Below, one piece after another: positions 7,056 through 52,452 of a stretch of DNA of 64,000 nucleotides (the stretch's first letter is position 1; each line of letters starts with the position of its first letter). The notes below the pieces were generated by a model. It was not told the DNA's origin. It searched no databases and saw only the letters and a list, made by a program, of their open reading frames with translations. This stretch comes from a virus (Duplodnaviria; Caudoviricetes). Both the position numbers and the translations under genes were made by a program. The DNA lies in IMG/VR virus record IMGVR_UViG_3300020577_002562, positions 123,210-187,209 of that record. One strand, given 5' to 3'.

Positions 7056-7895
7056 ATGCCTCCAGTTTTGCGTTCACAAGTTGAAGTTACTCGTCTACTA
7101 AATAGTAACAATCCAACTATACGATCTATATCCGAGTATAGAGGATGTAGAAGTGAAGGACAATTCGAGTGCTTAGAGTGTAAGCATGTTTGGTCAGCTC
7201 AATGGAGACGCATAATACAAGGCGCAACAAAATGTCCTCGATGCGTATCTGTAAGACTTGGAGGCAAAAACAAGAAAACGCACCAAGTCTATTGTGAAGA
7301 ACTTGCGTTGGTCGATCCTTCTATCCAGCCTCTAGAAAAATACGTCAATAGCTACACGGCTATTTTGCATAGACATGAGTGTGGGCATGAGTGGAGACTA
7401 ATGCCGTTAAACTCACTCCGCGGTAGAGGCTGTCCTAAGTGTAAGCTTCGTTTGCGCACCGTCAAATTGGGGGCCCGAAAGGTTAACGTGCGTGGATATG
7501 AAGCCATAGCTTTAAAGTGGCTTGTTCGTAACAAGAAAGTCAAACCGTCTGAAATACAAACACACAACGAGAAAACGGTACCTAATTTTCTATATCACCA
7601 CAGAGGTAGGCGAACATATTTCCCAGACTTTTACATACCCAAAACGAATTGTATAGTCGAAGTCAAGTCTTTATCAACCGTAGGCATTCTTGGTAACTTC
7701 TTTAATCTTAAACCTAGAACTCTGTTCTCGCTCACACAAGCCAAGGCTAAAGCTGTACTGAACGCAGGCTATCGTTTTAGACTATTGATCATGGGCAGCG
7801 ATGGCAATAGAATACCGACTCCGAAAGGATGGCTTCGTATGACACACAAAGAATTTTGCGCGTCTATCGGACCTGAGCATACCAGCAAACATTAA
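7056..7895 (+). CDS. putative homing endonuclease, Zn-ribbons + PD-(D/E)XK domain
   Basis: CxxCxHxW/CPxC repeats; VKLGARKVNVRGYE and PDFYIP..N.IVEVKS shared with 2938-3966. Confidence 0.85.
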   Translation: MPPVLRSQVEVTRLLNSNNPTIRSISEYRGCRSEGQFECLECKHVWSAQWRRIIQGATKCPRCVSVRLGGKNKKTHQVYCEELALVDPSIQPLEKYVNSYTAILHRHECGHEWRLMPLNSLRGRGCPKCKLRLRTVKLGARKVNVRGYEAIALKWLVRNKKVKPSEIQTHNEKTVPNFLYHHRGRRTYFPDFYIPKTNCIVEVKSLSTVGILGNFFNLKPRTLFSLTQAKAKAVLNAGYRFRLLIMGSDGNRIPTPKGWLRMTHKEFCASIGPEHTSKH

Positions 7896-39615: not shown

Positions 39616-39930
39616 CTACGTTGGATACATAATTACGTCGATGCTGCGGGCTCTCAAGTAGTCTATAGCATCCCATGCCGCTGTGTCCTTCGCATGGTGG
39701 TGATCTACAACCACTTGAGTAATTTCTCCGCTCGAAAATGGTCGAAAGAATGTGTCGGTAAGTGAAGATGCTCGAATGATGCGCAAATCTTCTCTACCGA
39801 GGGCTCTGGCAAGCCACATCGGGTACCTCAGATCACTGTTGCACCACACGAACACGGCGTTGGGCTTGGCGTCCCGCATCATCCGTGATGTTCTGCCTGT
39901 AACTGAGTTGGGCGTAGACTGCGCCATCAT
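39616..39930 (-). CDS. hypothetical protein
   Basis: ATGA overlap with gyrB. Confidence 0.55.
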   Translation of the reverse strand: MMAQSTPNSVTGRTSRMMRDAKPNAVFVWCNSDLRYPMWLARALGREDLRIIRASSLTDTFFRPFSSGEITQVVVDHHHAKDTAAWDAIDYLRARSIDVIMYPT

Positions 39931-41777
39931 TGCACTCCGAACAGTTCTTTGCGGTACGCTGAGTCTTTGCCCATCAGCAGCCGGAACTCATTGGCCCCAT
40001 TCTTGTCGGGGCCATTCACTCGGTAGAGAATGCGACGATCTGGGCTCAGTGCGATGTCCAACTCGTTCTCACTGATCTCACCCCAACCCTTGATGTATGT
40101 GATCGCCAGCTTGTCTGCGTCTACACCAGTGCGCTTGGCAATGGTCTCCTTCTTCATGCCAAAGTACAGCTTGCCCTTGTGCCAGCACTTGTAGAGCGGC
40201 GCCCTGACCACATGCACCACACCTTGCTTGAACAAGTGCGGCATGTAGCGCCACAAGATCGCCAAGCACAAGCAGTTGATGTGAGAACCGTCCACGTCCG
40301 GGTCCGCCATCGCAATGACTTTGCCGTAGCGGACAGTTGGTGGACCCTTCTTACCAAGCTCAACACCCAACGCAGCCAGTAGACCAACCACTTCTTTGTT
40401 GCTGTTTACTTTACCGGCATCCGCTTCCATCACGTTCAACGGCTTGCCACGTAGCGGGTAGATGGCTTGGAACGACTTGTCCCGCGCACGCTTGGCACCA
40501 CCCCCTGCGCTCTCACCTTCTACGATGAACAACTCGCACTCACCGGGTGGCCGCTTGCCGCTAACGTCTGCCAACTTGGTGCCGATGGTTTTCTTAGCCG
40601 AGTTGACTTCCTTGATCAGCTTCTTGTCTTTGAGGAAGTCTGCTGTACGTTCTCTCAGTTGAGCGGCACGAGCACACAGTTCCTTGGTGAATGTCTTGTT
40701 GACTTTGAAGAAGCTCTCGAACACCTTCAAGCACTCATTGTAGCAGGGCTCCTTGACTCGAATATCTACGAGCTTGTCTTTGGTCTGACTGCTGAACTGA
40801 GGTGCAGTGACTTTGTAGTTGAGCACACCCACCAGACCCTCGCGTAGATCCGTCGGAGTGAAGTGCTGACGCGCTCCCTTGTACGGCTCAATGGCATCGA
40901 CCAGTGCCTTGAACATAGCATCGGCGTGGATGCCTCGGTCAGCGTTGCGCACAGTGTTAGTAAAGAACTCGACTTGCTCACCTTCCGCGTTTGTGAAGTT
41001 GAGACACAGGTCAAGCGTGTGCGAAGTGTGGTGGAGTGGAGTCTTGTTGAAGGGCTCTGCCGACAACTCTTTCATTCGCTTCGCCAAGTACTCCTGCACA
41101 CCCTTCTTCGAGAACCACTGGCGCATCTTGCCATTGTGGAACACTTGGATGGTCAGACCGGCATTCATGTAGGCAGTCATCTCTGCCCACACCGTAAGCC
41201 GCTTCATGTCCAGTTGGTGCTTGCCGAAGATGTCCGGGTCCGGTGTGAACTGGATCACTGTACCAGACTTGATAGACTTGCCAGCGATCTTGGGGGGTCG
41301 GCACTTCTTGACCGGCTGCGTTTCACGACCCTGCTTAAACGATGTGCTGTGCCATCCACCACTGTCTTTGCGGTACGTCCAACACATGAAGTTGGAGGAC
41401 AGAGCATTGGTGCCCTTGATTCCAACCCCGTGTGTACCGATGGCCGACTCGTATGCACCCTTCTTCATCTTGCCACTAGACTGCAAGTTGGTCAGCACGT
41501 GAGTCAGCGTGCTGATCTTCATCACTGGGTGTTTGGCAACTGGAATGCCAACCCCGTGATCAATGACAGTGAACTGCCCCTTGTCCACATACACTTGGAT
41601 CAAGTCGTTCCGACCGGCACGGGCTTCATCCACTGCGTTGTCCAAGCACTCACGCAATACGGTGAAGACCCCGTCACTATCGACCGGACCCACATACATA
41701 GCTGGCCGACTACGTATCTTTTCCAGATCTCTTTTGAATGCCGTTATCGAAGTTTCGTCATACCGAGAACGGGTCAT
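39927..41777 (-). CDS. gyrB: type IIA topoisomerase subunit B (GyrB/ParE-like)
   Basis: RPAMYVG, ECLDNAVDE, DHGVGIP, GTHGVG, VEGESAGG, PLRGK, DPDVDG; ATG 41777 with AAGGA SD. Confidence 0.95.
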   Translation of the reverse strand: MTRSRYDETSITAFKRDLEKIRSRPAMYVGPVDSDGVFTVLRECLDNAVDEARAGRNDLIQVYVDKGQFTVIDHGVGIPVAKHPVMKISTLTHVLTNLQSSGKMKKGAYESAIGTHGVGIKGTNALSSNFMCWTYRKDSGGWHSTSFKQGRETQPVKKCRPPKIAGKSIKSGTVIQFTPDPDIFGKHQLDMKRLTVWAEMTAYMNAGLTIQVFHNGKMRQWFSKKGVQEYLAKRMKELSAEPFNKTPLHHTSHTLDLCLNFTNAEGEQVEFFTNTVRNADRGIHADAMFKALVDAIEPYKGARQHFTPTDLREGLVGVLNYKVTAPQFSSQTKDKLVDIRVKEPCYNECLKVFESFFKVNKTFTKELCARAAQLRERTADFLKDKKLIKEVNSAKKTIGTKLADVSGKRPPGECELFIVEGESAGGGAKRARDKSFQAIYPLRGKPLNVMEADAGKVNSNKEVVGLLAALGVELGKKGPPTVRYGKVIAMADPDVDGSHINCLCLAILWRYMPHLFKQGVVHVVRAPLYKCWHKGKLYFGMKKETIAKRTGVDADKLAITYIKGWGEISENELDIALSPDRRILYRVNGPDKNGANEFRLLMGKDSAYRKELFGVQ

Positions 41778-42531
41778 GTCCAATCCTTGAGTTTATCAGC
41801 TTGATACGATGTTGTAGTGATCTGCGGCTAAAGGTGCTACCAGAACCTTTCTTAATGTTGGCTTTGTAGTAGACAACATTAAGATTCGCTGGGTGACACA
41901 ATTCTTCCAATGGTACAGGTTTCTTTCGACGAATTAACGTCTGTTGTATATCAGACCATTTGAAATAGCCTGAAAACACAGAAAGCATGTGATCCACATG
42001 ATACTGCCTAGACCATTTTTCTGCGTTTGGAATGAACTCTGCGTAAAGCCCCATTACAGATCGAGTTAGTTTGTAAACGGTCCTTTTATACTCATCATAG
42101 GAGAGCTTCGATAGATCAAGACGAATCTTCTCCCGTATTGAAACTCTTATCTGCTGCCTACTACGGTGTTTACCTTGTTCCACCATTAGCTTGCGCTGTT
42201 CAACTTTTGAACGCAAAGCTTCATGCTCTTTCAACATACGTTCTATCTTGGAGTGAGATACTCCGTACTGGTCCGCTAGTTCTGCGCAAGTAGCTCCCTT
42301 CCGATAGCTTAGCACAATTTTCTTTTCTGGGAGCTCGACGTAGCGTTTCCTTATCCATCCTTCAGCTTCAGCTAACTTTTGTACTGTTGCGTGTGCGCAT
42401 TTCAGCACGTCAGCTACAGCTCTAAGGGATTGCTCTTCATTTATGTACAGTTTCCTGGCTAAAGCTTTTTTGCTGGGTGTCCAAATGGACGAGAGTCGTC
42501 CTGACTTAGTTCGTGGTCTATCAGGAAACAT
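41758..42531 (-). CDS. putative homing endonuclease (HTH repeats + HNH-like C-terminus)
   Basis: two HTH-like segments; YHVDH...HPANL...NIKKG; AT-rich; GGAG SD before ATG 42531 (alternative GTG 42549). Confidence 0.75.
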   Translation of the reverse strand: MFPDRPRTKSGRLSSIWTPSKKALARKLYINEEQSLRAVADVLKCAHATVQKLAEAEGWIRKRYVELPEKKIVLSYRKGATCAELADQYGVSHSKIERMLKEHEALRSKVEQRKLMVEQGKHRSRQQIRVSIREKIRLDLSKLSYDEYKRTVYKLTRSVMGLYAEFIPNAEKWSRQYHVDHMLSVFSGYFKWSDIQQTLIRRKKPVPLEELCHPANLNVVYYKANIKKGSGSTFSRRSLQHRIKLINSRIGHDPFSV

Positions 42532-42558
42532 AACAGCTCCAATGTACACACTTTCAAA

Positions 42559-43369: not shown

Positions 43370-44128
43370 TCACTTGTGAACCGAGTCGAGATACTGAGGT
43401 TGTTGGTCGGTCACGATCACCAAGTCTCGGTCTTTGAACGTGATCTTCTCGTGTCCGTCAGGCTTGTTGTAGTTGACCATGATCGCCGTTGACTTGCCGG
43501 ACTTGACGAACACTCGCTTCTTGTTCTTGCCCCAGTCGATGGTGAACTGAGTTAGCAAACCGATGGTCTTGAACTTGAATTGCTTGGGAGCTTCCGGTGG
43601 ATAAGGAAACACATTGATAGGCTTCACCGGCGCTGGCGTGACAGAAACTGTCGCTACTGGGTGCTCTCCTGTCGCAACCGGATGCGTGATGGACGTAGTG
43701 TGCGAAACTGGCTTACTCCCATCAGCCCCGATAGACGGCTTCGGAAGCCTCTCACGGTAGTTCACCAGATGATCGTAGAGCGTGCGAGCATCTTCCGCGA
43801 CACGCCCCTTCTTGATTTTCTTCTCGTTGAGGGTGTAGAATACAACCAACAGCTTGCCGTGGTACACTTCAAGTTTCATACCCATAGGTTCGTCTAGCAA
43901 GTCATCACCCGGCAGAGTGACCAGCTTGGTCCTGAACTTGGTGTTGCCCGCTACTCCTACAGGACCCCGCATCGAAAACGATGACGGAGTACCAATCATC
44001 TTGACTCCGTTCTTCATCTTGATGTCAATCGCCCTCTTCACCACATCGAGTGCGTACTTCTTCAGTTTCTCTTCTGCCTTGTGGTACTTCGTACTCTCGG
44101 TCTTGATCTTGCCGGTCTTGCGACTCAT
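43370..44128 (-). CDS. hypothetical Lys-rich protein
   Basis: GGAG SD before ATG 44128. Confidence 0.65.
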   Translation of the reverse strand: MSRKTGKIKTESTKYHKAEEKLKKYALDVVKRAIDIKMKNGVKMIGTPSSFSMRGPVGVAGNTKFRTKLVTLPGDDLLDEPMGMKLEVYHGKLLVVFYTLNEKKIKKGRVAEDARTLYDHLVNYRERLPKPSIGADGSKPVSHTTSITHPVATGEHPVATVSVTPAPVKPINVFPYPPEAPKQFKFKTIGLLTQFTIDWGKNKKRVFVKSGKSTAIMVNYNKPDGHEKITFKDRDLVIVTDQQPQYLDSVHK

Positions 44129-44159
44129 GAGGAACACTCCATCATTTACCGGTTCTGAA

Positions 44160-44550
44160 ATGGAACAAGCACGGGCGAACCAGAAATTCCCGTGCTTGCG
44201 TTGGTGTATGTGCTCTCCGAGTAACGTGTGCGCTGAGTCTAACGCAATAGATAGCGATGGGTCTGAGGCCGCTATCCATAAGCGCCGACACCAAGAACTT
44301 CCGCTAGGTACGCTGGGCCAACCGTCGTGGTTGGTCCAACTGGTTCGCTTTCATTCTCACCGACTTGACCGACGTTCTGTCAGACCACCTGGGTCGACTG
44401 GTGGAACGTGAGCTGCTTCGGGCGTTGAGTCTCGTTCTCAACTTTCTGGGAGAGTCTTGTCGTTTTGCGGTTACTCCAGACTACCCGCATTCGTACTCGC
44501 TCCTGGACAGCGAGAGGTGCCGGCCACCGTTCGTTAACCAAGTCTTGACT
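44160..44550 (-). ncRNA. candidate structured ncRNA (about 390 nt)
   Basis: no credible minus-strand ORF; many hairpins and two loop-mediated pairings. Confidence 0.45.
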
Positions 44551-44553
44551 GGC

Positions 44554-45072
44554 TCATTCAAAGCCAGGCAGACTGCTCGGCAAATCCGGGATCTTCTTCT
44601 TGGGCCACGCTGCCATACGTTCTGCATGCTCTTGAGCTTTCATTGCCACTGGCAGTGCCTGTGACCGCTTGCATAGCTCGACATAGTACGCCACTGCCTT
44701 ACAAGCCAACTCATCTTGAGCCCGCAGCAGAAATACAGGCTCGTCTTCAGGGATCAGACCAGCTGGGTCTTGAATCCGGTTGTAGTCTTCACGTGCGTGA
44801 ATCATGGTGCTTCCATTCGTTTGTTTCCGATTGACGTTACCGTCCGTGCTTCCATTGTACCACTTCAATGGTGCGCTGTGGTGCTGAGTGGTGCGCTGCT
44901 CGTAGGAGACTTGCACAGCTTGCAACCGGCAGAGTAGCAAGACAAGCCACAGAAGAGGTCCACACAAGATCAGTGGTACCCACCCCATCCACGGTGTTCG
45001 TGGCCAGGACTCGATGCGGTGCAGCACAGAGAACGCCACAGGTCCTAAAAGTATCCACAATAACCAACTCAT
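44554..45072 (-). CDS. hypothetical protein (hydrophobic N-terminus; conserved IP.DEPVFLLRAQD domain, possible internal start 44805)
   Basis: motif typical of small phage proteins. Confidence 0.55.
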   Translation of the reverse strand: MSWLLWILLGPVAFSVLHRIESWPRTPWMGWVPLILCGPLLWLVLLLCRLQAVQVSYEQRTTQHHSAPLKWYNGSTDGNVNRKQTNGSTMIHAREDYNRIQDPAGLIPEDEPVFLLRAQDELACKAVAYYVELCKRSQALPVAMKAQEHAERMAAWPKKKIPDLPSSLPGFE

Positions 45073-45186
45073 GTGTAGACTCTTGTCTAGGATAGATGCC
45101 TGCGGTAGTCGCTTTTCCAGCTAGATGGGGATGTCCAGTCCAACAGCACAGAAGTTCGTGCAACCATCTTCACTACCGCAGGCAAC

Positions 45187-45262
45187 TGGTGGGTGCTGAC
45201 GGGTTCGAACCGCCGACATCCGCCTTGTAAGGGCGGCACTCTACCAACTGAGTTAAGCACCC
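45187..45262 (-). tRNA. tRNA-Val(TAC)
   Basis: full cloverleaf, loop CTTACAA, encoded CCA. Confidence 0.95.
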
Positions 45263-45269
45263 GTTATTC

Positions 45270-45605
45270 TCAACCTTCGTGCACTAGACTACACAACGAC
45301 TTTCCAACATCGGTATCGTTGTCATACATAGAGCCGACCACCACTATTTCAGCATGTTCATAGGGGTAGTGAGTTTCACTGACGAACACAACTGGTTCAC
45401 TAACCCAGTCAAAAATCAACCGTGACATCCGTCTAGCGTACTCTGCTGGGTTTTCCGCATTTGGCTCACTTTGAAGAATGGCCTCTTCCAAATCCAGGGC
45501 TGTTTTGTACTCAACGCCTTCTATCTCAACGGGTGGATGCTTGCCTAGAACAACTGCATAACCAGTCTTTCTAGACTGACCAACTCCGTAGACTACGTAG
45601 CCCAT
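45270..45605 (-). CDS. hypothetical protein
   Basis: GAGG SD. Confidence 0.55.
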   Translation of the reverse strand: MGYVVYGVGQSRKTGYAVVLGKHPPVEIEGVEYKTALDLEEAILQSEPNAENPAEYARRMSRLIFDWVSEPVVFVSETHYPYEHAEIVVVGSMYDNDTDVGKSLCSLVHEG

Positions 45606-45608
45606 AGA

Positions 45609-45866
45609 CTAAACCTCGCCAACCGACTTTGGAGCGGCCCGCGTCTTGTCCACCAAGTCTACCAGTTGCTGAATGGTGGTCACCTCTTCCAGGTTGGCGT
45701 CTGGCAGCTCAATGTCGAACTCGTCTTCGAGACTCATCACAATCTCGATCTCGTCCAAGCTGTCAAGCCCTAGCGCTACTGTGGTGGACTCTGGTTTGAT
45801 TTCTTCTGGAGCAAAGCCAGCCCATTCACCTACAGTCTTGCACACTCGTTGATACGTATCGCTCAT
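45609..45866 (-). CDS. acpP: acyl carrier protein
   Basis: LGLDSLDEIEIVMSLEDEFDIE phosphopantetheine-site motif; start 45866 downstream of tRNA. Confidence 0.9.
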   Translation of the reverse strand: MSDTYQRVCKTVGEWAGFAPEEIKPESTTVALGLDSLDEIEIVMSLEDEFDIELPDANLEEVTTIQQLVDLVDKTRAAPKSVGEV

Positions 45867-45880
45867 GCTTCTCTCATTTA

Positions 45881-45957
<77 letters not shown>

Positions 45958-45969
45958 GTGTACTCTTGA

Positions 45970-46521
45970 TTAGTTACTTGAGTCAGTCGAATCGGTAGAT
46001 TCCCTAGAGTCTGCGCTTCCTAGTCTAAACGGCGAACTCCAGTTCAAGGCGGGCGCAATTGGTGCCCCCATACTTGCAGCATGTTTGTGTTTGTACCGAG
46101 TCTCCAATTCCTCAAGTGACTCTTCGCCTTGCTTCAACGTCATGCTGACCACTGACTGAGAGCATCCAATGATCTCAGCAATCTCACGATGCAACATCAT
46201 GCGACCGTGAAACATGACCATTGATCTGCTCTTGGTTGGCACTGGCATTTTCTTTGCGGGAACAGGCGCGTCCGACTGCTTGTCTTCTACTGGCTGGATC
46301 GCCCACACAGGCGAAATCACAGTGTTGTAACTCATGATGTAGACGATACCCGCGTCGTGGAACGCTTTGACGTACTTGGCTAACGCTCCACTATGGGAAA
46401 TCAATGACGAGTCTGCGTAGACGAACCGCACAATGTCTATCATGGCTTTGGGGCCATCATACAAAGCCGCTATCACTTTGGCAGCAATGTCACACGGTCG
46501 GTGGTAGTATGTTTTACCCAT
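45970..46521 (-). CDS. HTH-domain DNA-binding protein
   Basis: REIAEIIGCSQSVVS; architecture similar to 52964-53512. Confidence 0.65.
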   Translation of the reverse strand: MGKTYYHRPCDIAAKVIAALYDGPKAMIDIVRFVYADSSLISHSGALAKYVKAFHDAGIVYIMSYNTVISPVWAIQPVEDKQSDAPVPAKKMPVPTKSRSMVMFHGRMMLHREIAEIIGCSQSVVSMTLKQGEESLEELETRYKHKHAASMGAPIAPALNWSSPFRLGSADSRESTDSTDSSN

Positions 46522-46540
46522 AGTCTCACACTTCGCGATG

Positions 46541-46610
46541 TTAGGGTGCCCCGCTCTTGCTGGCTAAAGAGCCAGTTTCTGACACAGATAACCAGTGTCT
46601 ATGCAACCGT
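46541..46610 (-). ncRNA. structured motif, copy 1
   Basis: homologous to 47494-47570 with compensatory stem changes. Confidence 0.5.
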
Positions 46611-46654
46611 AGATGCCGAAGCTCCTCGGCGTTCTCGCGCTCCGGCACCATGGG

Positions 46655-46765
46655 GCCTAACTCCTCGGTCAACTCGGACCCGCGGTCGGCGGCGTTCGTT
46701 TCTTGGTTTGTGCTCATCGTTGCTCCAGTAGCCCACGCGCGGGCCGGTTACCTCGAACGTTGAAC
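46655..46765 (+). mobile_element. integron attC-like recombination site (111 bp)
   Basis: GCCTAAC (R''), GGTCAAC/GTTACC L boxes with extrahelical C, second bulged A, GTTGAAC (R'). Confidence 0.7.
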
Positions 46766-46882
46766 TCGTCCTCGAGACTCACCACAATCTCGACCTCAGC
46801 CAGACTGTCAAGTCCTAGAGCTACTGTGGAGTTCCGCCAAGAGGATCGCGGCTATCTCACACGGGCGGCGGTTCTTTGGCAT
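46759..46882 (-). pseudogene. chimeric remnant: HTH-gene 5' end fused out of frame to an ACP fragment
   Basis: MPKNRRPCEIAAILLAELH (cf. HRPCDIAAKVIAALY); STVALGLDSLAEVEIVVSLEDEFN at 46759-46830. Confidence 0.8.
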
Positions 46883-47069
46883 GCTTCATCTATACGATCG
46901 TCTACTAGATTGGGATCTTCTTACCAAACATCTAAACGCTTGCGAGTACCACATATCAGCAAGAGTTCGACAAATCCACGCCTGGACATGGGCATCATGT
47001 AAATCAACGGGTCTATTCATTGTGCGTCAACTTCTGGTGTCTTAGACACAGAGGCGATAGCACCATACA

Positions 47070-47471
47070 CTACACCCTCAGTCGATTACGGACATCTAGA
47101 ACTCGTCTACTCTGTTCACAGACGATTGAGTACAACTCTGCTAGACATTTGGACAAGGGGCATGACACGGAATACGCATAGTCACCATCCATTTCCGAAT
47201 CTTGCTGTTCAGGACCTTCCATTACCGTCACTGGTTCGAGCGCTAGTCTCAATTGAGAAATCCTCTCCGCCAGTTCGAGAAGTTCTTGCTGAATACAACC
47301 AGCCCACGTATTCACCTCAGATTCTTTGACGACTTCGGCAGTCTTAGTGGGCAAGGTATCAAGTAATGTTGGGGCAGGGCCGCAACGTGCACTCTTTTCA
47401 GGCTCTCTTCTTAGCCCCTGACGCTCTTCAGTGCGATCACGACGATTTGCTCTTACGAGTTGTGAAGACAT
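47070..47471 (-). CDS. hypothetical protein
   Basis: AAGGA SD. Confidence 0.6.
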   Translation of the reverse strand: MSSQLVRANRRDRTEERQGLRREPEKSARCGPAPTLLDTLPTKTAEVVKESEVNTWAGCIQQELLELAERISQLRLALEPVTVMEGPEQQDSEMDGDYAYSVSCPLSKCLAELYSIVCEQSRRVLDVRNRLRV

Positions 47472-47493
47472 GATTGATTCCTTCTAGCTAAGT

Positions 47494-47794
47494 TAAGGGT
47501 GTCCCTGCTCTTGCCACTTGAAGAAGTGGTTTTTGACACAGATGGCTCCGATCTATGCGACCCAACAAGCTTGTTAACTTGCTGAGTCTATGCAATCATC
47601 GCCACGGCAGGGACCACCTTAGTCAGCACATCACTTCATTATCCGCTAGTGCTGACCAAGGGACTATGGATCAGGCCGCGAGGGCCTGATCGAATTGCGC
47701 GTCGTTGGCAGTTCTCTCTTTGCTTGGTTTGCGGCTCCGCTTGCCGGATCGTCGTTCTTACTCTCGGTAACCCTGTCGAAACTATTTCAGCCCC
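47494..47794 (-). ncRNA. ssrA: two-piece tmRNA, coding piece (5' end 47794; tag ANDAQFDQALAA at 47709-47671; 3' end uncertain)
   Basis: GGGGCTGAAATAGTTTCGAC start; resume context AACT|GCC; stop within GATCAGGCC/GGCCTGATC hairpin. Confidence 0.92.
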
Positions 47795-48285
47795 ATCACA
47801 AGTGCACGAACGTACCCCGTTGGAATCTGATTCGTCTTTGGTTGGACGACTCTATGAACTTCCCACCCTTTTCTTATAGCTGATCGCTCTTTCTTCGCAT
47901 CTAGTTGCTTGATAGTGGCATCAAAATGATAAGCACCATCGAACTCGATAAGAATCCTACGATCATCTATCTTCAGAGCCAGATCAAACACGTATTTTCC
48001 AACGGGAAGTTCAAATTTATGTCTTACCTTGTATTTTGTCAACCAGGCCTGAAGCTTTCCGTATTTGCTAGCTTCTCTCTTTCTAAGCAAAGCTGCTACG
48101 TGTTTTACTTCATGCCCGTAAGTTGCTCCAGAATAGTGCTGTCCACATTTACGTGAACAGAAATATGGTTTTGGCAGTTTCTTACCTGCTTTCACCCATT
48201 TGCTATTTTGGTGCGTTACTTCGGCTAACTTTTTCGTGAAGTTAGCCTTGCACAAACTACAAGTTAGTTTTACCGTCTGTATCAT
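47782..48285 (-). CDS. putative homing endonuclease (Zn-ribbon + Vsr/DUF559-like nuclease) in tmRNA intervening segment
   Basis: CSLC...FCSRKC; FDLAL...IEFDGAYH...GWEVHRV; AT-rich; ATG 7 nt after CCA. Confidence 0.8.
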   Translation of the reverse strand: MIQTVKLTCSLCKANFTKKLAEVTHQNSKWVKAGKKLPKPYFCSRKCGQHYSGATYGHEVKHVAALLRKREASKYGKLQAWLTKYKVRHKFELPVGKYVFDLALKIDDRRILIEFDGAYHFDATIKQLDAKKERSAIRKGWEVHRVVQPKTNQIPTGYVRALVMGLK

Positions 48286-48292
48286 ACACTTA

Positions 48293-48510
48293 TGGTGGAG
48301 CTGGCGGGTACTGCCCCCGCGTCCAGAACCCCTCAAGCTCGATCTCTCAAGCTCTTTACGAGCCCTCACGATCATTACTACCACGACGTTCCATACTCAC
48401 AACCTTTCGATTGCCGGTACGGGTGCGGTATCGCGTACCGACCTGACCACTTGCGGAATACAGCTTTACCCTATTGACCGTCACTTGGGCAGCTGCTTGA
48501 CGGTCAAGAT
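48293..48510 (-). ncRNA. ssrA: two-piece tmRNA, acceptor piece (CCA end at 48293; 5' end uncertain)
   Basis: GGACGCGGGGGCAGTACCCGCCAGCTCCACCA; pairs with GGGGCTG giving G3-U70. Confidence 0.9.
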
Positions 48511-48893
48511 CAGCAACACCAGCAATGTGGGCCACGACCAGTGCTACTCAACGCTTCTACTTTACAGTGTTCGGTTGTTCAGTGCGCTACTCAACGTCAT
48601 CAGACCAAGACCTGACTAGCCAATGAACCCATAGCCACCAGCGCCACAATCAAGAGGGCGGCGATAAGCGATAGACCCCATTCCGCCATCTTCTTCATGT
48701 CAGGCATAGTGCTCTCCAGATCAATGATCGTACTGACTGCGCTTGTCGTTCAGCTTTGCTCGTTGCGTGCGCTTACCATTATCCACCCGGCGGTTTACCG
48801 AACGCTCACGTTTAGCCTCATTCGTACCGCCGAAGCTTGCGTACAGTGTAGCCCACTGTTCTCGGCGTCGTTGTCGCTTTGTGTCTGCCATAG

Positions 48894-50120
48894 TCAACCC
48901 TTCACACAGACTACTTGCTTGAGCGTGTGAACCACGTCCACAAGGTCAGCTTGAGCTGCCATCACCATGTCGATGTCCTTGTAAGCCATCGGTGTCTCAT
49001 CCAACACCGAATCGTCTTTGCGGCACTCTACGCCGACGGTGGCGGCAACGTGATCCTCAACCGTAAACCTCTTCTTCGCTTCGTTGCGTCCCATCACACG
49101 ACCAGCACCGTGACTGCACGAACAGAAGGAGTCCGGATTGCCCTTACCACGCACGAGGTAGGACTTGGCACCCATGGAACCTGGGATGATGCCAAGCTGA
49201 TCGGCTTGTGCTGATACAGCCCCCTTGCGTGTCAAGTAAACGTCCTGGCCGAAATGACGCTCAATCGACACATAGTTGTGGTGGCAGTTCACTGCCGATT
49301 CCATTAACAGGAACTCTTTCGATACTGACTCAACCAATGCCTGTACCGTACTCATCATCATGAGCTCCCGGTTCTTACGAGCAAATGCTTGCGCCCAGAG
49401 AACTGCCATGCAGTAGTGGTCGAAATGCTTGGAGCCTTCAGACAGGTACGCCAAGTTCTTGTCGCTGAGTTGGTACTTGCCGACGATGTCCATTTCACGT
49501 TTGGCCTTCTCGATGAAGAAGGTGCCAATGCGGTTACCGATGCCGCGCGAGCCTGAATGCAGCATCAACCATACGTACTGATCTTCATCGATGCAGACCT
49601 CAATGAAGTGATTGCCAGTGCCGAGAGTACCTGCATGCAATGGTGCTCTACGTGCAGCACGCTCCAACTCGGGGTACAGTTGGACCAGAGCCTCCAGTTC
49701 TGTCAACTCGTCTTTGAGATACTGCAAGACCATCGGATCGGGCAGATCCCATGCACCACAGTCACCTGGGCCACCTTCATGTGAGCGACCATGCGGAACA
49801 CGTCGTTCAATGTTGGTGCGTAGCTCATGCAAATTATCCGGCAAGTCACTTGCTCTAAGCGAGGTCTGTTGTGCCATCATGCCACAACCAATGTCCACCC
49901 CAACAGCGGCTGGAATCAGTGCTTTGATGGTCGGCACAACGGTACCGATGGTGGTGCCTGCGCCCCAATGAACGTCTGGCATCACCGCGACATGACTGTG
50001 AACAAACGGTAATGCTGCCAGGTTCCTCAACTGCGTGACCGCAGCGTCTTCAACTGGCACTCCCTTCGTCCACATCTTGATCGGTACTGGGCTGCCTTGC
50101 AACTCGATATAGCTCACCAT
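48894..50120 (-). CDS. rtcB: RtcB RNA ligase
   Basis: MPDVHWG, VGVDIGCG, GTLGTGNHF, HSGSRG, HHNY, SCSHGAGR, YKDID, VCVKG. Confidence 0.97.
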   Translation of the reverse strand: MVSYIELQGSPVPIKMWTKGVPVEDAAVTQLRNLAALPFVHSHVAVMPDVHWGAGTTIGTVVPTIKALIPAAVGVDIGCGMMAQQTSLRASDLPDNLHELRTNIERRVPHGRSHEGGPGDCGAWDLPDPMVLQYLKDELTELEALVQLYPELERAARRAPLHAGTLGTGNHFIEVCIDEDQYVWLMLHSGSRGIGNRIGTFFIEKAKREMDIVGKYQLSDKNLAYLSEGSKHFDHYCMAVLWAQAFARKNRELMMMSTVQALVESVSKEFLLMESAVNCHHNYVSIERHFGQDVYLTRKGAVSAQADQLGIIPGSMGAKSYLVRGKGNPDSFCSCSHGAGRVMGRNEAKKRFTVEDHVAATVGVECRKDDSVLDETPMAYKDIDMVMAAQADLVDVVHTLKQVVCVKG

Positions 50121-50497
50121 GTTTCCTTGGCAGGACTTGGCGTCTTCGGCGTCCCATACTTGGTTATCAGCTTTTCCAGTTGCTTCCGTTCGCTCTGTTC
50201 GCGCCTCTTCTTTGTGGCTTCCCGCTCACGCTTGTCGCGTTCACGCGTCTTTTGTTCTCTGCTCAAACGCGCAGTGCGTTCCTGCTCAGTTTCCGGCCTG
50301 TACCAGAAGAAGATTTGGTCGTCAGCATCGAACTTGATCTTCGAGTAGTCAACTCCTTCTGGAAGTCTATCCACAAGATTTTCGATGCTATCACCATCGT
50401 ACAGAGGGACGCTGTCCTGAACAAGTTTGGGTTGAGCCGACTTGGTGTTCTTAGTTGAGGGCGCGGTCTTGGTGGTCTTGGTGGTCTTAGCGTTCAT
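50114..50497 (-). CDS. hypothetical protein with KTTK-rich N-terminus
   Basis: ORF between tRNA and rtcB. Confidence 0.6.
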   Translation of the reverse strand: MNAKTTKTTKTAPSTKNTKSAQPKLVQDSVPLYDGDSIENLVDRLPEGVDYSKIKFDADDQIFFWYRPETEQERTARLSREQKTRERDKREREATKKRREQSERKQLEKLITKYGTPKTPSPAKETW

Positions 50498-50539
50498 GTT
50501 GATCTACCGTTGAATGTTGTGGGTGGTGAAGATGGTTAA

Positions 50540-50617
50540 TGGTCCGCCGGAAGGGATTCGAACCCCCGACCTGCTGCTTAGAAGGCAGCTGCTCTAATCC
50601 TACTGAGCTACCGGCGG
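50540..50617 (-). tRNA. tRNA-Arg(TCT)
   Basis: full cloverleaf, loop CTTCTAA, CCA. Confidence 0.95.
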
Positions 50618-50856
50618 TTGGTTGGCTGGTGGTTCTAAAGCACTCGAATTTGAACTCAAGTCGTCTTTGAAGTAATAGAGAGTGACTCCTGGCGGAAGCG
50701 CATCTAACCACAGCACTCTTCCGAACTTAGGGTCATAACCAGTACGGCTCGCCTGTGTACTTCCGTACCTGAGTACGGTGTACTTCCCACGCAAACAACA
50801 TAGCATCTTCTACGAACGGATCGTAGTCTATGACTGCTGAAGCATCCGTTTCGGAG

Positions 50857-51387
50857 TCAATAGAGGTTTTCACTGAACAGTTCACGTTCATCTCCTGGGC
50901 AACGATGCAATATCTGACCAGCGGCTCTAGCTACGGTCAAGGCTTCGTAACGGTTCATCCACTTGCCGTGCTGGTCCACGAAACCATCTTCAGCTTTCGC
51001 CCAGTCTGCTAGGTTTCTCACGCCAAACTCTAAAAGCTGCTGCATGATTGAATCGTAGTGTCGCGGGCCGCACAAGATGTGGCCTCGCTTACTACGGATA
51101 GCGGCACATACCACCCGACGTTGACTGGCATCCGGCTGTACTGTCTCTTCCTGCTCTACGGCCTTTACTGGTGGAGTAGCATGCCAGGTTCGTGTAGCAG
51201 AACATGAGCCGCCATGACTGTTATATGGGTCGAAGCGAAGTCCATCAGGTCGTTCCAACCAGACCACTGCCTGGTGGTTAACCTGTGGATAGTTGGCATC
51301 AGTGATGCCAGTAACGGTACCGGGACCAACTGAACTTCTAGACACAGGGTCACCAATGTTCAGCGTACACGGATCAAGCTCAGACAT
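50857..51387 (-). CDS. hypothetical two-domain phage protein
   Basis: AGGAG SD; RVVCAA...GPRH...GF.DQ.G.WM.R.EA motif. Confidence 0.65.
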   Translation of the reverse strand: MSELDPCTLNIGDPVSRSSVGPGTVTGITDANYPQVNHQAVVWLERPDGLRFDPYNSHGGSCSATRTWHATPPVKAVEQEETVQPDASQRRVVCAAIRSKRGHILCGPRHYDSIMQQLLEFGVRNLADWAKAEDGFVDQHGKWMNRYEALTVARAAGQILHRCPGDERELFSENLY

Positions 51388-51796
51388 GTTCAACTCCTGT
51401 CCAGGGATCATCGTATACTGGTGGTCGAAGCCGCATCACTTCAAACCAAGCGTGTTCGTACATGGGCTGCTCAAAGTAGCGTCCGATTCTGATCACGATG
51501 GGGGTGTGTAAGCTGTTTATGCTGTGTGTCCCGACTACACGGAGTCGGGGGCTCAATATACCTCTACTCAATGACCATCTGTTCGCTTCCATCAGATCCT
51601 TGGCGAAAATCAGTATGACCGACTCGTTAGCTTGGAGCACGTCAAGCAGCGGACGAGTTTCTTTACAGTACCTAGCAACCGGCTTCAATTCGGAGAACAG
51701 CTTACGTGTCTCCTCAGAACACTGAAATCGAGGTGGCATCTGGAATCCTTGTTTGCTCATCGGCTTGATGGACAAAGGGGTGGCACACGAGGCCAC
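51380..51796 (-). CDS. hypothetical protein (start probably internal)
   Basis: operon packing. Confidence 0.5.
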   Translation of the reverse strand: MASCATPLSIKPMSKQGFQMPPRFQCSEETRKLFSELKPVARYCKETRPLLDVLQANESVILIFAKDLMEANRWSLSRGILSPRLRVVGTHSINSLHTPIVIRIGRYFEQPMYEHAWFEVMRLRPPVYDDPWTGVEHV

Positions 51797-51800
51797 CCCT
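51776..51800 (-). terminator. terminator-like hairpin after HU gene
   Basis: AGGGGTGGC/GCCACCCCT. Confidence 0.6.
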
Positions 51801-51822
51801 GTAGTTGCTAAGACTATCCAGA

Positions 51823-52281
51823 TCAGCAGTCGCCGTTCGACGCCCTCTTCAGCTTGGCGAGCACTCGGATGCGAGCTTTGATGTAAGACGGGCGAGTGTA
51901 CGCGGGCCGTCCCTTGGACTTCATCATCTCTCCGGTGCTTGGGTTGCGGACTTCAGTGCCCTTCTTGATAGCCGGAAACTTCTTGGCTGGCATCTTCTTG
52001 GTCACGACTTTGAACATACCCGGCCACGAAAACTCGCCAGCGCCGCCGGGCATGACTGATGCCATCATGGCACGCTCGAAGGTAGCCATGACTGCCTTCA
52101 CTTGGCGTGGTTCCAGTTCGTTCTTCTCAGCGATCTTTGCCATCAGCTCATTCTTGGTGAACTTCTTGCGAAGAGGCTTGATTGCATCGACGGTTTTTGC
52201 ACGACGAGCCCTCGTCGTCTTGGCCTTGCTCTTGGTGGTCTTGCTGGTCTTCGTGGTCTTTGCCTTGGCGGTACGTGCCAT
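51823..52281 (-). CDS. HU/IHF-family DNA-binding protein with basic N-terminal tail
   Basis: TKNELMAKIAEK; F.WPGMFKV; RNPSTGE; AGGA SD before ATG 52281. Confidence 0.88.
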   Translation of the reverse strand: MARTAKAKTTKTSKTTKSKAKTTRARRAKTVDAIKPLRKKFTKNELMAKIAEKNELEPRQVKAVMATFERAMMASVMPGGAGEFSWPGMFKVVTKKMPAKKFPAIKKGTEVRNPSTGEMMKSKGRPAYTRPSYIKARIRVLAKLKRASNGDC

Positions 52282-52312: not shown

Positions 52313-52369
52313 TGGTGCCGGCTATCCGACTCGAACGGATGACCTACCGGCGGTTTCAATGAAATTGGT
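52313..52369 (-). tRNA. 3' half of split tRNA-like gene
   Basis: CCGGT-AGGTC-ATCCG TTCGAGT CGGAT-AGCCGGC-ACCA preceded by 17-nt extension. Confidence 0.8.
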
Positions 52370-52452
52370 GCTGGGGGTGAGATTCGAACTCACGTGAGGT
52401 TGCCCTGCCGGCTTACAAAACCGGTGCAATCGACCAACTATGCGACCCCAGC
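52366..52452 (-). tRNA. nested tRNA-Thr(TGT) with long variable arm
   Basis: GCTGGGG/CCCCAGC acceptor, loop TTTGTAA, AGG-GCAA-CCT variable arm, CCA. Confidence 0.85.

Follow-up and report, generated by a model that had tools for sequence, protein, structure and literature searches.

The last 64 kb of a linear virus record in IMG/VR (IMGVR_UViG_3300020577_002562; 187,209 bp, CheckV completeness approximately 75%), called the window in what follows, belong to a large uncultured phage and carry a gene for transfer-messenger RNA (tmRNA) in circularly permuted form. The T arm and the 3′ strand of the acceptor stem with its CCA (the acceptor piece) precede, on the same strand, the 5′ strand of the acceptor stem and the tag reading frame (the coding piece). 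Between the two pieces lies an intervening sequence (IVS, or spacer) filled by an open reading frame (ORF), P0001, for a predicted zinc-ribbon nuclease. Judged by its sequence the tmRNA still looks functional, and the ORF is probably a free-standing gene of homing-endonuclease type that has invaded the spacer. Table 1 lists the features of the locus, its surroundings and the loci compared with it.

Table 1. Features of the permuted tmRNA locus, of its surroundings and of comparison loci. Positions without a prefix are window positions; those with an L prefix refer to other loci. dN/dS, ratio of nonsynonymous to synonymous substitution rates; pS and pN, proportions of synonymous and nonsynonymous differences.
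Feature	Position	Strand	Remarks
Acceptor piece (Rfam-covered part)	48293..48344	minus	RF04321 model positions 1-63
Possible 5′ extension of acceptor piece	48345..48392	minus	carries GGAACGUCGU and tandem GAGCUUGAG duplication
P2 3′ strands	48325-48344	minus	
T stem	48316-48320 and 48304-48308	minus	
T loop GGCAGUA	48309-48315	minus	
Acceptor 3′ strand CAGCUCC	48297-48303	minus	
Discriminator A	48296	minus	
Encoded CCA	48293-48295	minus	
IVS	47795..48292	minus	exactly 498 nt, between CCA and G1
IVS-closing helix, 5′ strand UAAGUGUAUGA	48282..48292	minus	begins at first IVS base after CCA
Spacer ORF P0001, 167 aa	47782-48285	minus	N-terminal Cys4 zinc ribbon and C-terminal DUF559/Vsr-fold PD-(D/E)XK domain (predicted nuclease)
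IVS-closing helix, 3′ strand UCGUGCACUUG	47799..47809	minus	within ORF codons R-A-L-V near C-terminus
UGAU leader	47795..47798	minus	directly 5′ of predicted RNase P site
Coding piece, 5′ part	47671..47794	minus	RF04321 model positions 87-213; includes D-loop analogue
Acceptor 5′ strand GGGGCUG	47788-47794	minus	
P2 5′ strands	CAG 47773-47775; UAAG 47757-47760; CGAUC 47747-47751	minus	
Coding-piece hairpin	47732-47746	minus	
Tag reading frame ANDAQFDQALAA, stop UGA	47671-47709	minus	
Coding piece, 3′ part (3′ end inferred)	47510..47670	minus	hairpins down to 47514-47529
Next ORF downstream of coding piece	starts 47471		
32-aa hydrophobic ORF MKKMAEWGLSLIAALLIVALVAMGSLASQVLV	48600-48698	minus	
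RtcB RNA ligase gene	48894-50120	minus	Pfam 408 bits; directly upstream of tmRNA locus
Low-GC island 2	7056-7895	plus	279-aa DUF7487/treble-clef zinc-finger ORF, on the opposite strand
Low-GC island 3	41758-42549	minus	263-aa HTH and HNH-like ORF directly upstream of GyrB-like gene (39927-41783)
Acyl-carrier-protein-like ORF	45609-45914	minus	PP-binding, 53.8 bits; among phage tRNA genes
tRNA-Thr	52366-52452	minus	ARAGORN
HNH-type ORF, 136 aa	52452-52862	minus	
One-piece tmRNA on metagenome contig	L277:1635-1942	minus	RF00023, 77.6 bits
43-47-aa 'WISW' family	spacers of L159 (1485-1616), L160 (2881-3024), L187 (898-1035) and L252		dN/dS 0.2-0.5
69-aa membrane protein, hydrophobic tail	spacers of L175 (1054-1263), L216 (1972-2181) and L246		pS 0.76 versus pN 0.055
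DUF6356 protein	spacer of L262 (420-608)		30.1 bits, cut-off 24.4; sole Pfam match among the spacer genes listed here

The Rfam model for permuted tmRNA, RF04321 (tmRNA_permuted), matches positions 47671-48344 on the minus strand with 97.8 bits (E 1e-18; gathering cut-off 47 bits) over its whole length (model positions 1-213 of 213), and a search of the whole genome returned the same single locus. The alignment contains one large insertion only, between CAGCUCC-A-CCA, which ends at 48293, and GGGGCUGAAAUAGUUUCGAC, which starts at 47794. A preliminary description of the window, made by a model from the letters and a list of ORFs, had proposed a circularly permuted two-piece tmRNA with a 498-nt spacer; the identification and the exact length are both confirmed, and the elements it listed lie where it had placed them. 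These include the 7-bp acceptor stem, GGGGCUG/CAGCUCC, with G3 opposite U70 (the alanine identity pair, as that description had noted), followed by a discriminator A and an encoded CCA. The T arm is GCGGG-GGCAGUA-CCCGC, and three helix segments of P2 pair 48325-48344 with 47747-47775 in the RF04321 alignment. The proposed tag, ANDAQFDQALAA*, likewise holds: it runs from a GCC (Ala) resume codon at 47709 to the stop at 47671 and has a hydrophobic tail of the ...LAA type, and directly after it comes a 13-bp hairpin (47649-47661 with 47617-47629). All tRNA-like and tag elements are thus intact. RNAcofold of the two pieces recovered the acceptor stem and T arm; its other pairings, with the tag region, are implausible.

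One detail of the preliminary description stands in part. It had paired 48383-48392 with 47746-47755, and GGAACGUCGU is indeed complementary to the coding piece there at 9 of 10 positions as read from the sequence, but the Rfam alignment pairs the same coding-piece bases with 48340-48344 instead, so that two pairings compete. The alpha-type RF01849 models extend approximately 40 nt past RF04321 in relatives. Between the 32-aa ORF and the acceptor piece (region 48345-48700) there are approximately 250 nt of structured non-coding DNA, with the tandem GAGCUUGAG duplication at 48331-48353. This stretch could serve as promoter or leader, or the acceptor piece could have a long 5′ extension here.

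Pattern scans of IMG/VR yielded 74 loci with the conserved 5′ end and at least 120 with the GGCAGUA T-loop. Strict classification of 120 T-loop matches called 87 permuted and left 28 unclassified, most of which turned out to be permuted too when looked at more loosely. Twelve GGCAGUA-type loci were run through Rfam: 11 reach RF01849 (alpha_tmRNA), at 50-123 bits, and all but one of these tested relatives also match RF04321, at 68-126 bits, a range into which the 97.8 bits of the window fall. The T-loop had been likened at the outset to that of alphaproteobacterial permuted tmRNAs, and the Rfam matches, with most carriers of the T-loop being permuted, bear this out. On the window locus itself the RF01849 score is no more than 23.2 bits, from a match to model positions 89-166, since an insertion of 498 nt is too long for this model to bridge.

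ARAGORN makes no tmRNA call at the window locus, and it stayed silent when the spacer was shortened in silico to 20-90 nt, so the miss is likely due to the GGCAGUA T-loop and not to spacer length alone. It also finds no tmRNA in ten further loci (L004, L008, L010, L013, L021, L031, L035, L044, L067 and L070), which have both tmRNA ends, 5′ and acceptor, and a T-loop of the GGCAGUA type or a near variant (GGCGGUA, GGCAGAA), and among the loci examined it misses one-piece tmRNAs with GGCAGUA or a near-identical T-loop as well. This blind spot covers a common group of phage tmRNAs, and because of it the silence of ARAGORN says nothing on the integrity of the window gene. Of the two tools that the preliminary description had named as checks, then, the Rfam permuted model matches and ARAGORN gives no call. 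A search of metagenomes for the exact 24-mer of the tmRNA 5′ end gave one match, a one-piece tmRNA. The one-piece tmRNA of metagenome contig L277 (Table 1) shares its 5′ 20-mer and GGCAGUA T-loop with the permuted gene of the window, so that this T-loop is found in one-piece and in permuted genes.

Both ends of the spacer could be placed in 122 viral permuted loci, the window included. The 121 other spacers measure 5-277 nt with a median of approximately 39 nt, in keeping with the earlier statement that they are normally short, and the 498 nt of the window are the longest. Relatives with a short spacer, which that description had suggested finding, thus exist in number, but none is a close relative of the window tmRNA: similarity is confined to approximately 30 nt at each conserved end. 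A blastn search of phage records with the window locus gave no match. We also considered that a cassette bringing a substitute gene end might have replaced part of the gene; this was rejected, as neither the acceptor end nor the 5′ end has a stranded duplicate in the window within 6-7 mismatches.

Immediately after the CCA, UAAGUGUAUGA pairs with UCGUGCACUUG over 11 consecutive base pairs, a run reached by none of 200 shuffles. Relatives have a closing helix as well: among 55 distinct spacers of at least 40 nt the longest run averages 9.8 bp, against 5.0 in shuffles, and its register is fixed, with spacer base 1 pairing with base -5, as in the window. The last four bases of the IVS, TGAT, are conserved in 55 of the tmRNA-group loci whose IVS is at least 10 nt. 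The T arm, acceptor stem and closing helix all appear in the minimum free energy and centroid folds of the 606-nt precursor (z = -8.4), which handle the 498-nt spacer as a single closed domain. The closing helix encloses the ORF, whose start codon lies inside it. In the predicted fold the insertion therefore occupies a hairpin loop, the stem of this hairpin being a continuation of the acceptor stem. Such a fold would bring the tmRNA halves together regardless of loop length and would explain why the length of what the loop holds need not matter to the gene.

These observations bear on the possibility that the tmRNA is dead, the long spacer blocking folding or RNase P processing and the flanks being a recent pseudogene. 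Its spacer is 1.8 times the longest in the 121 relatives, ARAGORN makes no call and no SmpB is encoded in the 187-kb record. We nevertheless judge it improbable, since the conserved elements are all intact, the covariance model scores the gene much as it does intact relatives, closing helix and UGAU leader stand in their usual register and the predicted precursor fold is canonical. The ARAGORN miss is likely the T-loop effect described above, seen with one-piece tmRNAs too, and the absence of SmpB was judged on this record alone. Large spacers also have precedent: the 2025 tmRNA database, with 11,946 permuted sequences, reports as spacer contents only one tRNA-Ala gene and one repetitive element, the latter in its longest permuted gene, of 1152 bp (PMC11915505).

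The start codon of P0001 lies 7 nt past the CCA (ATG, 48283-48285), in alignment with the starts called for its homologues P0004 and P0005; the database's own call of this ORF is 197 aa long and runs back into the acceptor piece. Pfam assigns DUF559 (25.8 bits, cut-off 20.6), with a match to the restriction-endonuclease-like family MTES_1575 below its cut-off. In an alignment of 25 sequences the zinc-ribbon cysteines (C9, C12, C43 and C47) and D116 are nearly invariant, and Y75, E92, D101, E114, H120, D129 and R145 are invariant. The AlphaFold2 model (pLDDT 92) is matched by Foldseek exclusively to PD-(D/E)XK nucleases, at weak E-values (probability 0.93 for 3r3p), and an exhaustive structural scan ranked 3hrl (DUF559, Z 8.0) first, followed by I-Bth0305I (3r3p, Z 7.9; rmsd 4.2, 93 aligned), Bax1 and Vsr (1cw0, Z 7.5). 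Middling as they are, these structural matches agree with the Pfam assignment, on the evidence of the model. A sequence search of the Protein Data Bank with P0001 gave no significant match, 3r3p included. The motif E114-F-D116-G-A-Y-H120-F-D122, which reads EFDSRYHD in homologues, may be compared with E-D-x-H-D of the I-Bth0305I family. P0001 is accordingly an intact gene with a modelled nuclease fold and a predicted nuclease. The preliminary description had called it a 167-aa zinc-ribbon, Vsr-like nuclease filling the spacer; the ORF, the fold and the DUF559 match uphold this, but membership of the Vsr family is rejected, no Vsr family being among the Pfam hits at E ≤1, and the likeness is in fold only.

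The spacer ORF is of foreign composition. The GC content of the spacer is 41.4%, against 52.3% for the genome, and a genome-wide scan found only three islands below 43% GC in the record, one of which matches the spacer in extent, give or take a few bases. All three carry a nuclease-like ORF (Table 1), the HNH-like motif of the 263-aa ORF having been read by eye and not as a Pfam hit. A group I intron was rejected as the vehicle: no match to Intron_gpI or any other ribozyme was found by Rfam in positions 44000-52000 at E ≤1, and the insertion lies between CCA and G1, not in the T-loop.

We also considered a hairpin-seeking DUF559 cassette that, without classical double-strand-break homing, landed here because spacer DNA is palindromic. 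An 11-bp inverted repeat does bracket the ORF, with the start codon within it. This bracketing helix, however, belongs to the tmRNA spacer and has the same register in relatives without a DUF559 gene, and the genome holds no second copy of the spacer ORF and no further copies of the closing-helix repeat; we regard this explanation as the least probable of those considered.

Homologues of the nuclease are few. Three close clusters (52-60% identity) were found among 5.8 billion proteins, and an exhaustive HMMER search added 314 more distant relatives at E ≤0.001, mostly proteins of approximately 210 aa in which this nuclease domain is joined to two zinc ribbons. When viral, metagenome and genome collections were searched by pattern with P0001 and relatives, no related locus came up. 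A tblastn search of 50,697 phage records found no homologue of the spacer ORF, and none is present in the other tmRNA loci that were fetched, among them the 121 other viral permuted genes.

The two closest homologue clusters with N-terminal extensions give an indication of their sites. Their over-called N-termini read ...NEGSTPSSSTIRLM in P0003/P0006 (60% identity) and ADGSSTLPTSTIRTEL in P0018 (47%). Translated back, these extensions give the two strands of a 5-bp T stem around a UUCGACU-type loop, then xxxCUCC and ACCA, which fits a T arm plus CUCCACCA; a back-translated UAAG comes after the ACCA, ending 8-11 nt ahead of the conserved ORF start. The background frequency of a T-arm-compatible pattern is 3e-5 to 2e-4 per peptide window, and among 167 collected proteins the pattern occurs at that position only in P0002 (from the window), P0003, P0006 and P0018, with one stray. 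This suggests that members of the nuclease subfamily regularly start a few bases past a tmRNA-type CCA end, next to tmRNAs with a different T-loop; the sites are deduced from the protein N-termini, by which a permuted gene and a one-piece gene are not distinguishable. Complementarity to a closing helix in the back-translated C-termini is uninformative, being possible in 36-63% of random controls.

At its other end P0001 overlaps the coding piece. It terminates ...GUG AUG GGG CUG AAA UAG: the AUG codon ends on G1 of the coding piece, and the UAG occupies nt 11-13 of the mature piece. Cleavage by RNase P at G1 is established for two-piece tmRNA precursors. Since the stop lies inside the coding piece, such a cut would deprive the spacer RNA of its stop codon and of the three sense codons before it, leaving a non-stop message. 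A ribosome reading this RNA would be expected to stall at its 3′ end, where rescue by trans-translation would tag the product, so that processing would make the remaining nuclease message self-destructing. The AUG lies in the closing helix and has no clear Shine-Dalgarno sequence before it; each precursor molecule therefore looks able either to fold and be processed or to be translated, but not both.

The reading that we favour, with reasonable though not high confidence, is that of a functional-looking phage tmRNA gene of alphaproteobacterial permuted type whose spacer was invaded by a free-standing, homing-endonuclease-like gene for a zinc ribbon and DUF559 domain. One precursor would be transcribed across the acceptor piece, the spacer and the coding piece, its halves held together by the closing helix and acceptor stem despite the 498-nt loop. 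RNase P would cut 5′ of G47794 and trimming of the 3′ end would halt at the encoded CCA; the two released pieces would remain base-paired and the spacer would be discarded. As the spacer is lost during processing, the insertion would, we propose, cost the tmRNA nothing and need no splicing. The nuclease would be translated only from unfolded, unprocessed precursor, and after the RNase P cut the non-stop spacer message would give a product tagged by the tmRNA and degraded, keeping nuclease output low. The nuclease might spread the cassette by cutting spacer-empty tmRNA alleles of co-infecting phages near the highly conserved CUCCACCA / GGGGCUGAAAUAG flanks. The idea of a safe haven equivalent to an intron but needing no splicing, already put forward in the preliminary description, fits this anatomy, with the ORF in the loop of the closing helix, although the niche is not one for nucleases only (see below).

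Several observations weigh against this reading. The spacer exceeds those of all relatives, being nearly twice the longest, and processing may be impaired; IMG/VR, phage records and metagenomes yielded no close relative of this phage whose spacer is empty; the fold matches, at Z 7.5-8, count as 'middling' for the structural tool that gave them; and the AUG is preceded by no clear ribosome-binding site. Lastly, other spacers, of 140-277 nt, hold small ORFs that are not nucleases and behave as real genes (Table 1).

The substitution patterns of these small spacer ORFs indicate purifying selection, and several of them terminate at the same UAG within the coding piece as P0001. Their presence weakens the claim of a niche specific to selfish nucleases, and means that the nuclease could be ordinary cargo of a general gene slot. 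In this main rival in our ranking, the nuclease is swappable accessory cargo that serves the phage, perhaps by helping to degrade host DNA, to keep out rival phages or to counter defences, and is not self-homing. The unrelated small genes under selection and their shared UAG end speak for it; the layout of P0001, a zinc ribbon with a Vsr-like nuclease, matches instead that of known homing endonucleases such as I-Bth0305I, the low-GC signature is common to the two other islands with nuclease-like ORFs in this genome, and the nuclease family is very rare and patchy, with its three close clusters among 5.8 billion proteins. On balance we consider cargo of this kind unlikely. A little less doubtful, and offered tentatively, is a combination in which phage tmRNA spacers form a general gene slot wired to maturation, with a helix-locked start and a non-stop dose limiter, while the nuclease lineage of P0001, P0003, P0005 and P0018 homes to tmRNA ends.

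Compared with what has been described, an invaded tmRNA spacer brings together two familiar kinds of gene, the free-standing homing endonuclease gene of phages and the permuted tmRNA gene, and does not constitute a new category. Searches of the full-text literature found no published report of a protein gene in a tmRNA spacer, and the preliminary description had likewise known of no such case. Phage-borne two-piece tmRNAs are known, with 53 unique ARAGORN calls in isolate phages including the OM43 phage Melnitz and pelagimyophages (PMC9004378, where the two-piece tmRNA of Caulobacter is cited to Keiler, Shapiro & Williams 2000). They share with the window the gene order, the alphaproteobacterial-type tRNA domain and a large aquatic-type phage as carrier, and their precursor is likewise expected to be cut by tRNA-processing enzymes; their spacers are described as short and non-coding, whereas in the window a predicted nuclease gene takes up a spacer of 498 nt (PMC9004378 for the phage tmRNAs).

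Selfish nuclease genes have been found elsewhere in tmRNA genes. Group I introns interrupt some tmRNA genes in the T-loop, and some carry LAGLIDADG homing endonuclease genes (36 of 883); the tmRNA database places homing endonuclease genes solely inside such introns (PMC11915505). As predicted for the window, the nuclease gene occupies a tmRNA segment that is absent from the mature RNA. The introns, however, splice themselves and their exons are re-ligated, whereas the window segment is predicted to be trimmed away with the pieces staying separate, and the window nuclease is of a different family. An overlap like that at the end of P0001 is known from Carsonella, where the smpB frame runs into ssrA and maturation of the tmRNA should give a non-stop smpB mRNA (PMC4131195); there too a coding frame ends within the mature tmRNA 5′ end and its stop would be removed by RNase P. 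That case is an overlap with a neighbouring gene upstream of a one-piece tmRNA in a reduced genome, in contrast to an ORF inside the spacer of a permuted gene. The 23S rRNA of Coxiella burnetii has an IVS that carries an ORF, S23p (PMC4990558). The window may be likened to it in having a selfish ORF insert in a structured-RNA gene, which host RNases would cut out without joining the ends again, so that the RNA works in fragments. The Coxiella IVS creates the fragmentation and its ORF is not a nuclease; in the window the two-piece state pre-exists the insertion and the ORF is a predicted nuclease.

Two further systems resemble the window in the placement of the nuclease gene. SegB of phage T4 is a free-standing homing endonuclease in a tRNA cluster. 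Like P0001 it is flanked by conserved genes for structured RNAs in a large phage, with a conserved flank as its probable target; it stands between independent genes, whereas the flanks of P0001 are halves of one RNA, the second of which the ORF overlaps. In the 'fractured genes' reportedly described by Dassa et al. in 2009, a homing endonuclease gene is said to lie between the halves of a split-intein gene, and I-Bth0305I is said to represent an EDxHD family with a Vsr fold. There as here the nuclease sits between host-gene halves that reassemble, and it has a Vsr-like fold and a similar E..D...H.D motif, but those halves reassemble by protein trans-splicing and those of the window, as predicted, by RNA base pairing, and no sequence match to 3r3p was found.

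To our knowledge, selfish nuclease genes have been thought to persist in essential genes only by way of self-splicing introns, inteins or intergenic sites. A permuted RNA gene would be a third refuge, in which the occupied segment is discarded by the tRNA-processing enzymes of the cell with no splicing machinery. In the proposed circuit the RNase P cut would strip the stop from the embedded message and the released tmRNA would tag the product. The locus also gives a clue to what DUF559 nucleases, a poorly understood family, do. For annotation it matters that tmRNA spacers can be long and coding, as ARAGORN misses the gene and gene callers extend the ORF into the tmRNA.

Genes in the window lie nearly all on the minus strand, with five tRNA genes interspersed (ARAGORN). 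A functional link of the tmRNA with the RtcB RNA ligase gene directly upstream was considered and rejected: relatives of this RtcB (56-67% identity) have no tmRNA nearby in 80 viral loci, so the neighbourhood looks incidental. A scan of the locus for promoters and terminators gave counts no higher than in shuffles, and for this reason a promoter-like site inside the ORF (48042-48014) is given no weight. The 5′ end of the acyl-carrier-protein-like ORF overlaps tRNA-Pro (45881-45957), so its real start is probably further downstream. Finally, the stop codon (UAG) of the HNH-type ORF shares the first base of tRNA-Thr, an overlap of the type seen at the tmRNA, and RNase P cleavage at the 5′ end of this tRNA would leave the message of the HNH-type ORF without a stop codon.

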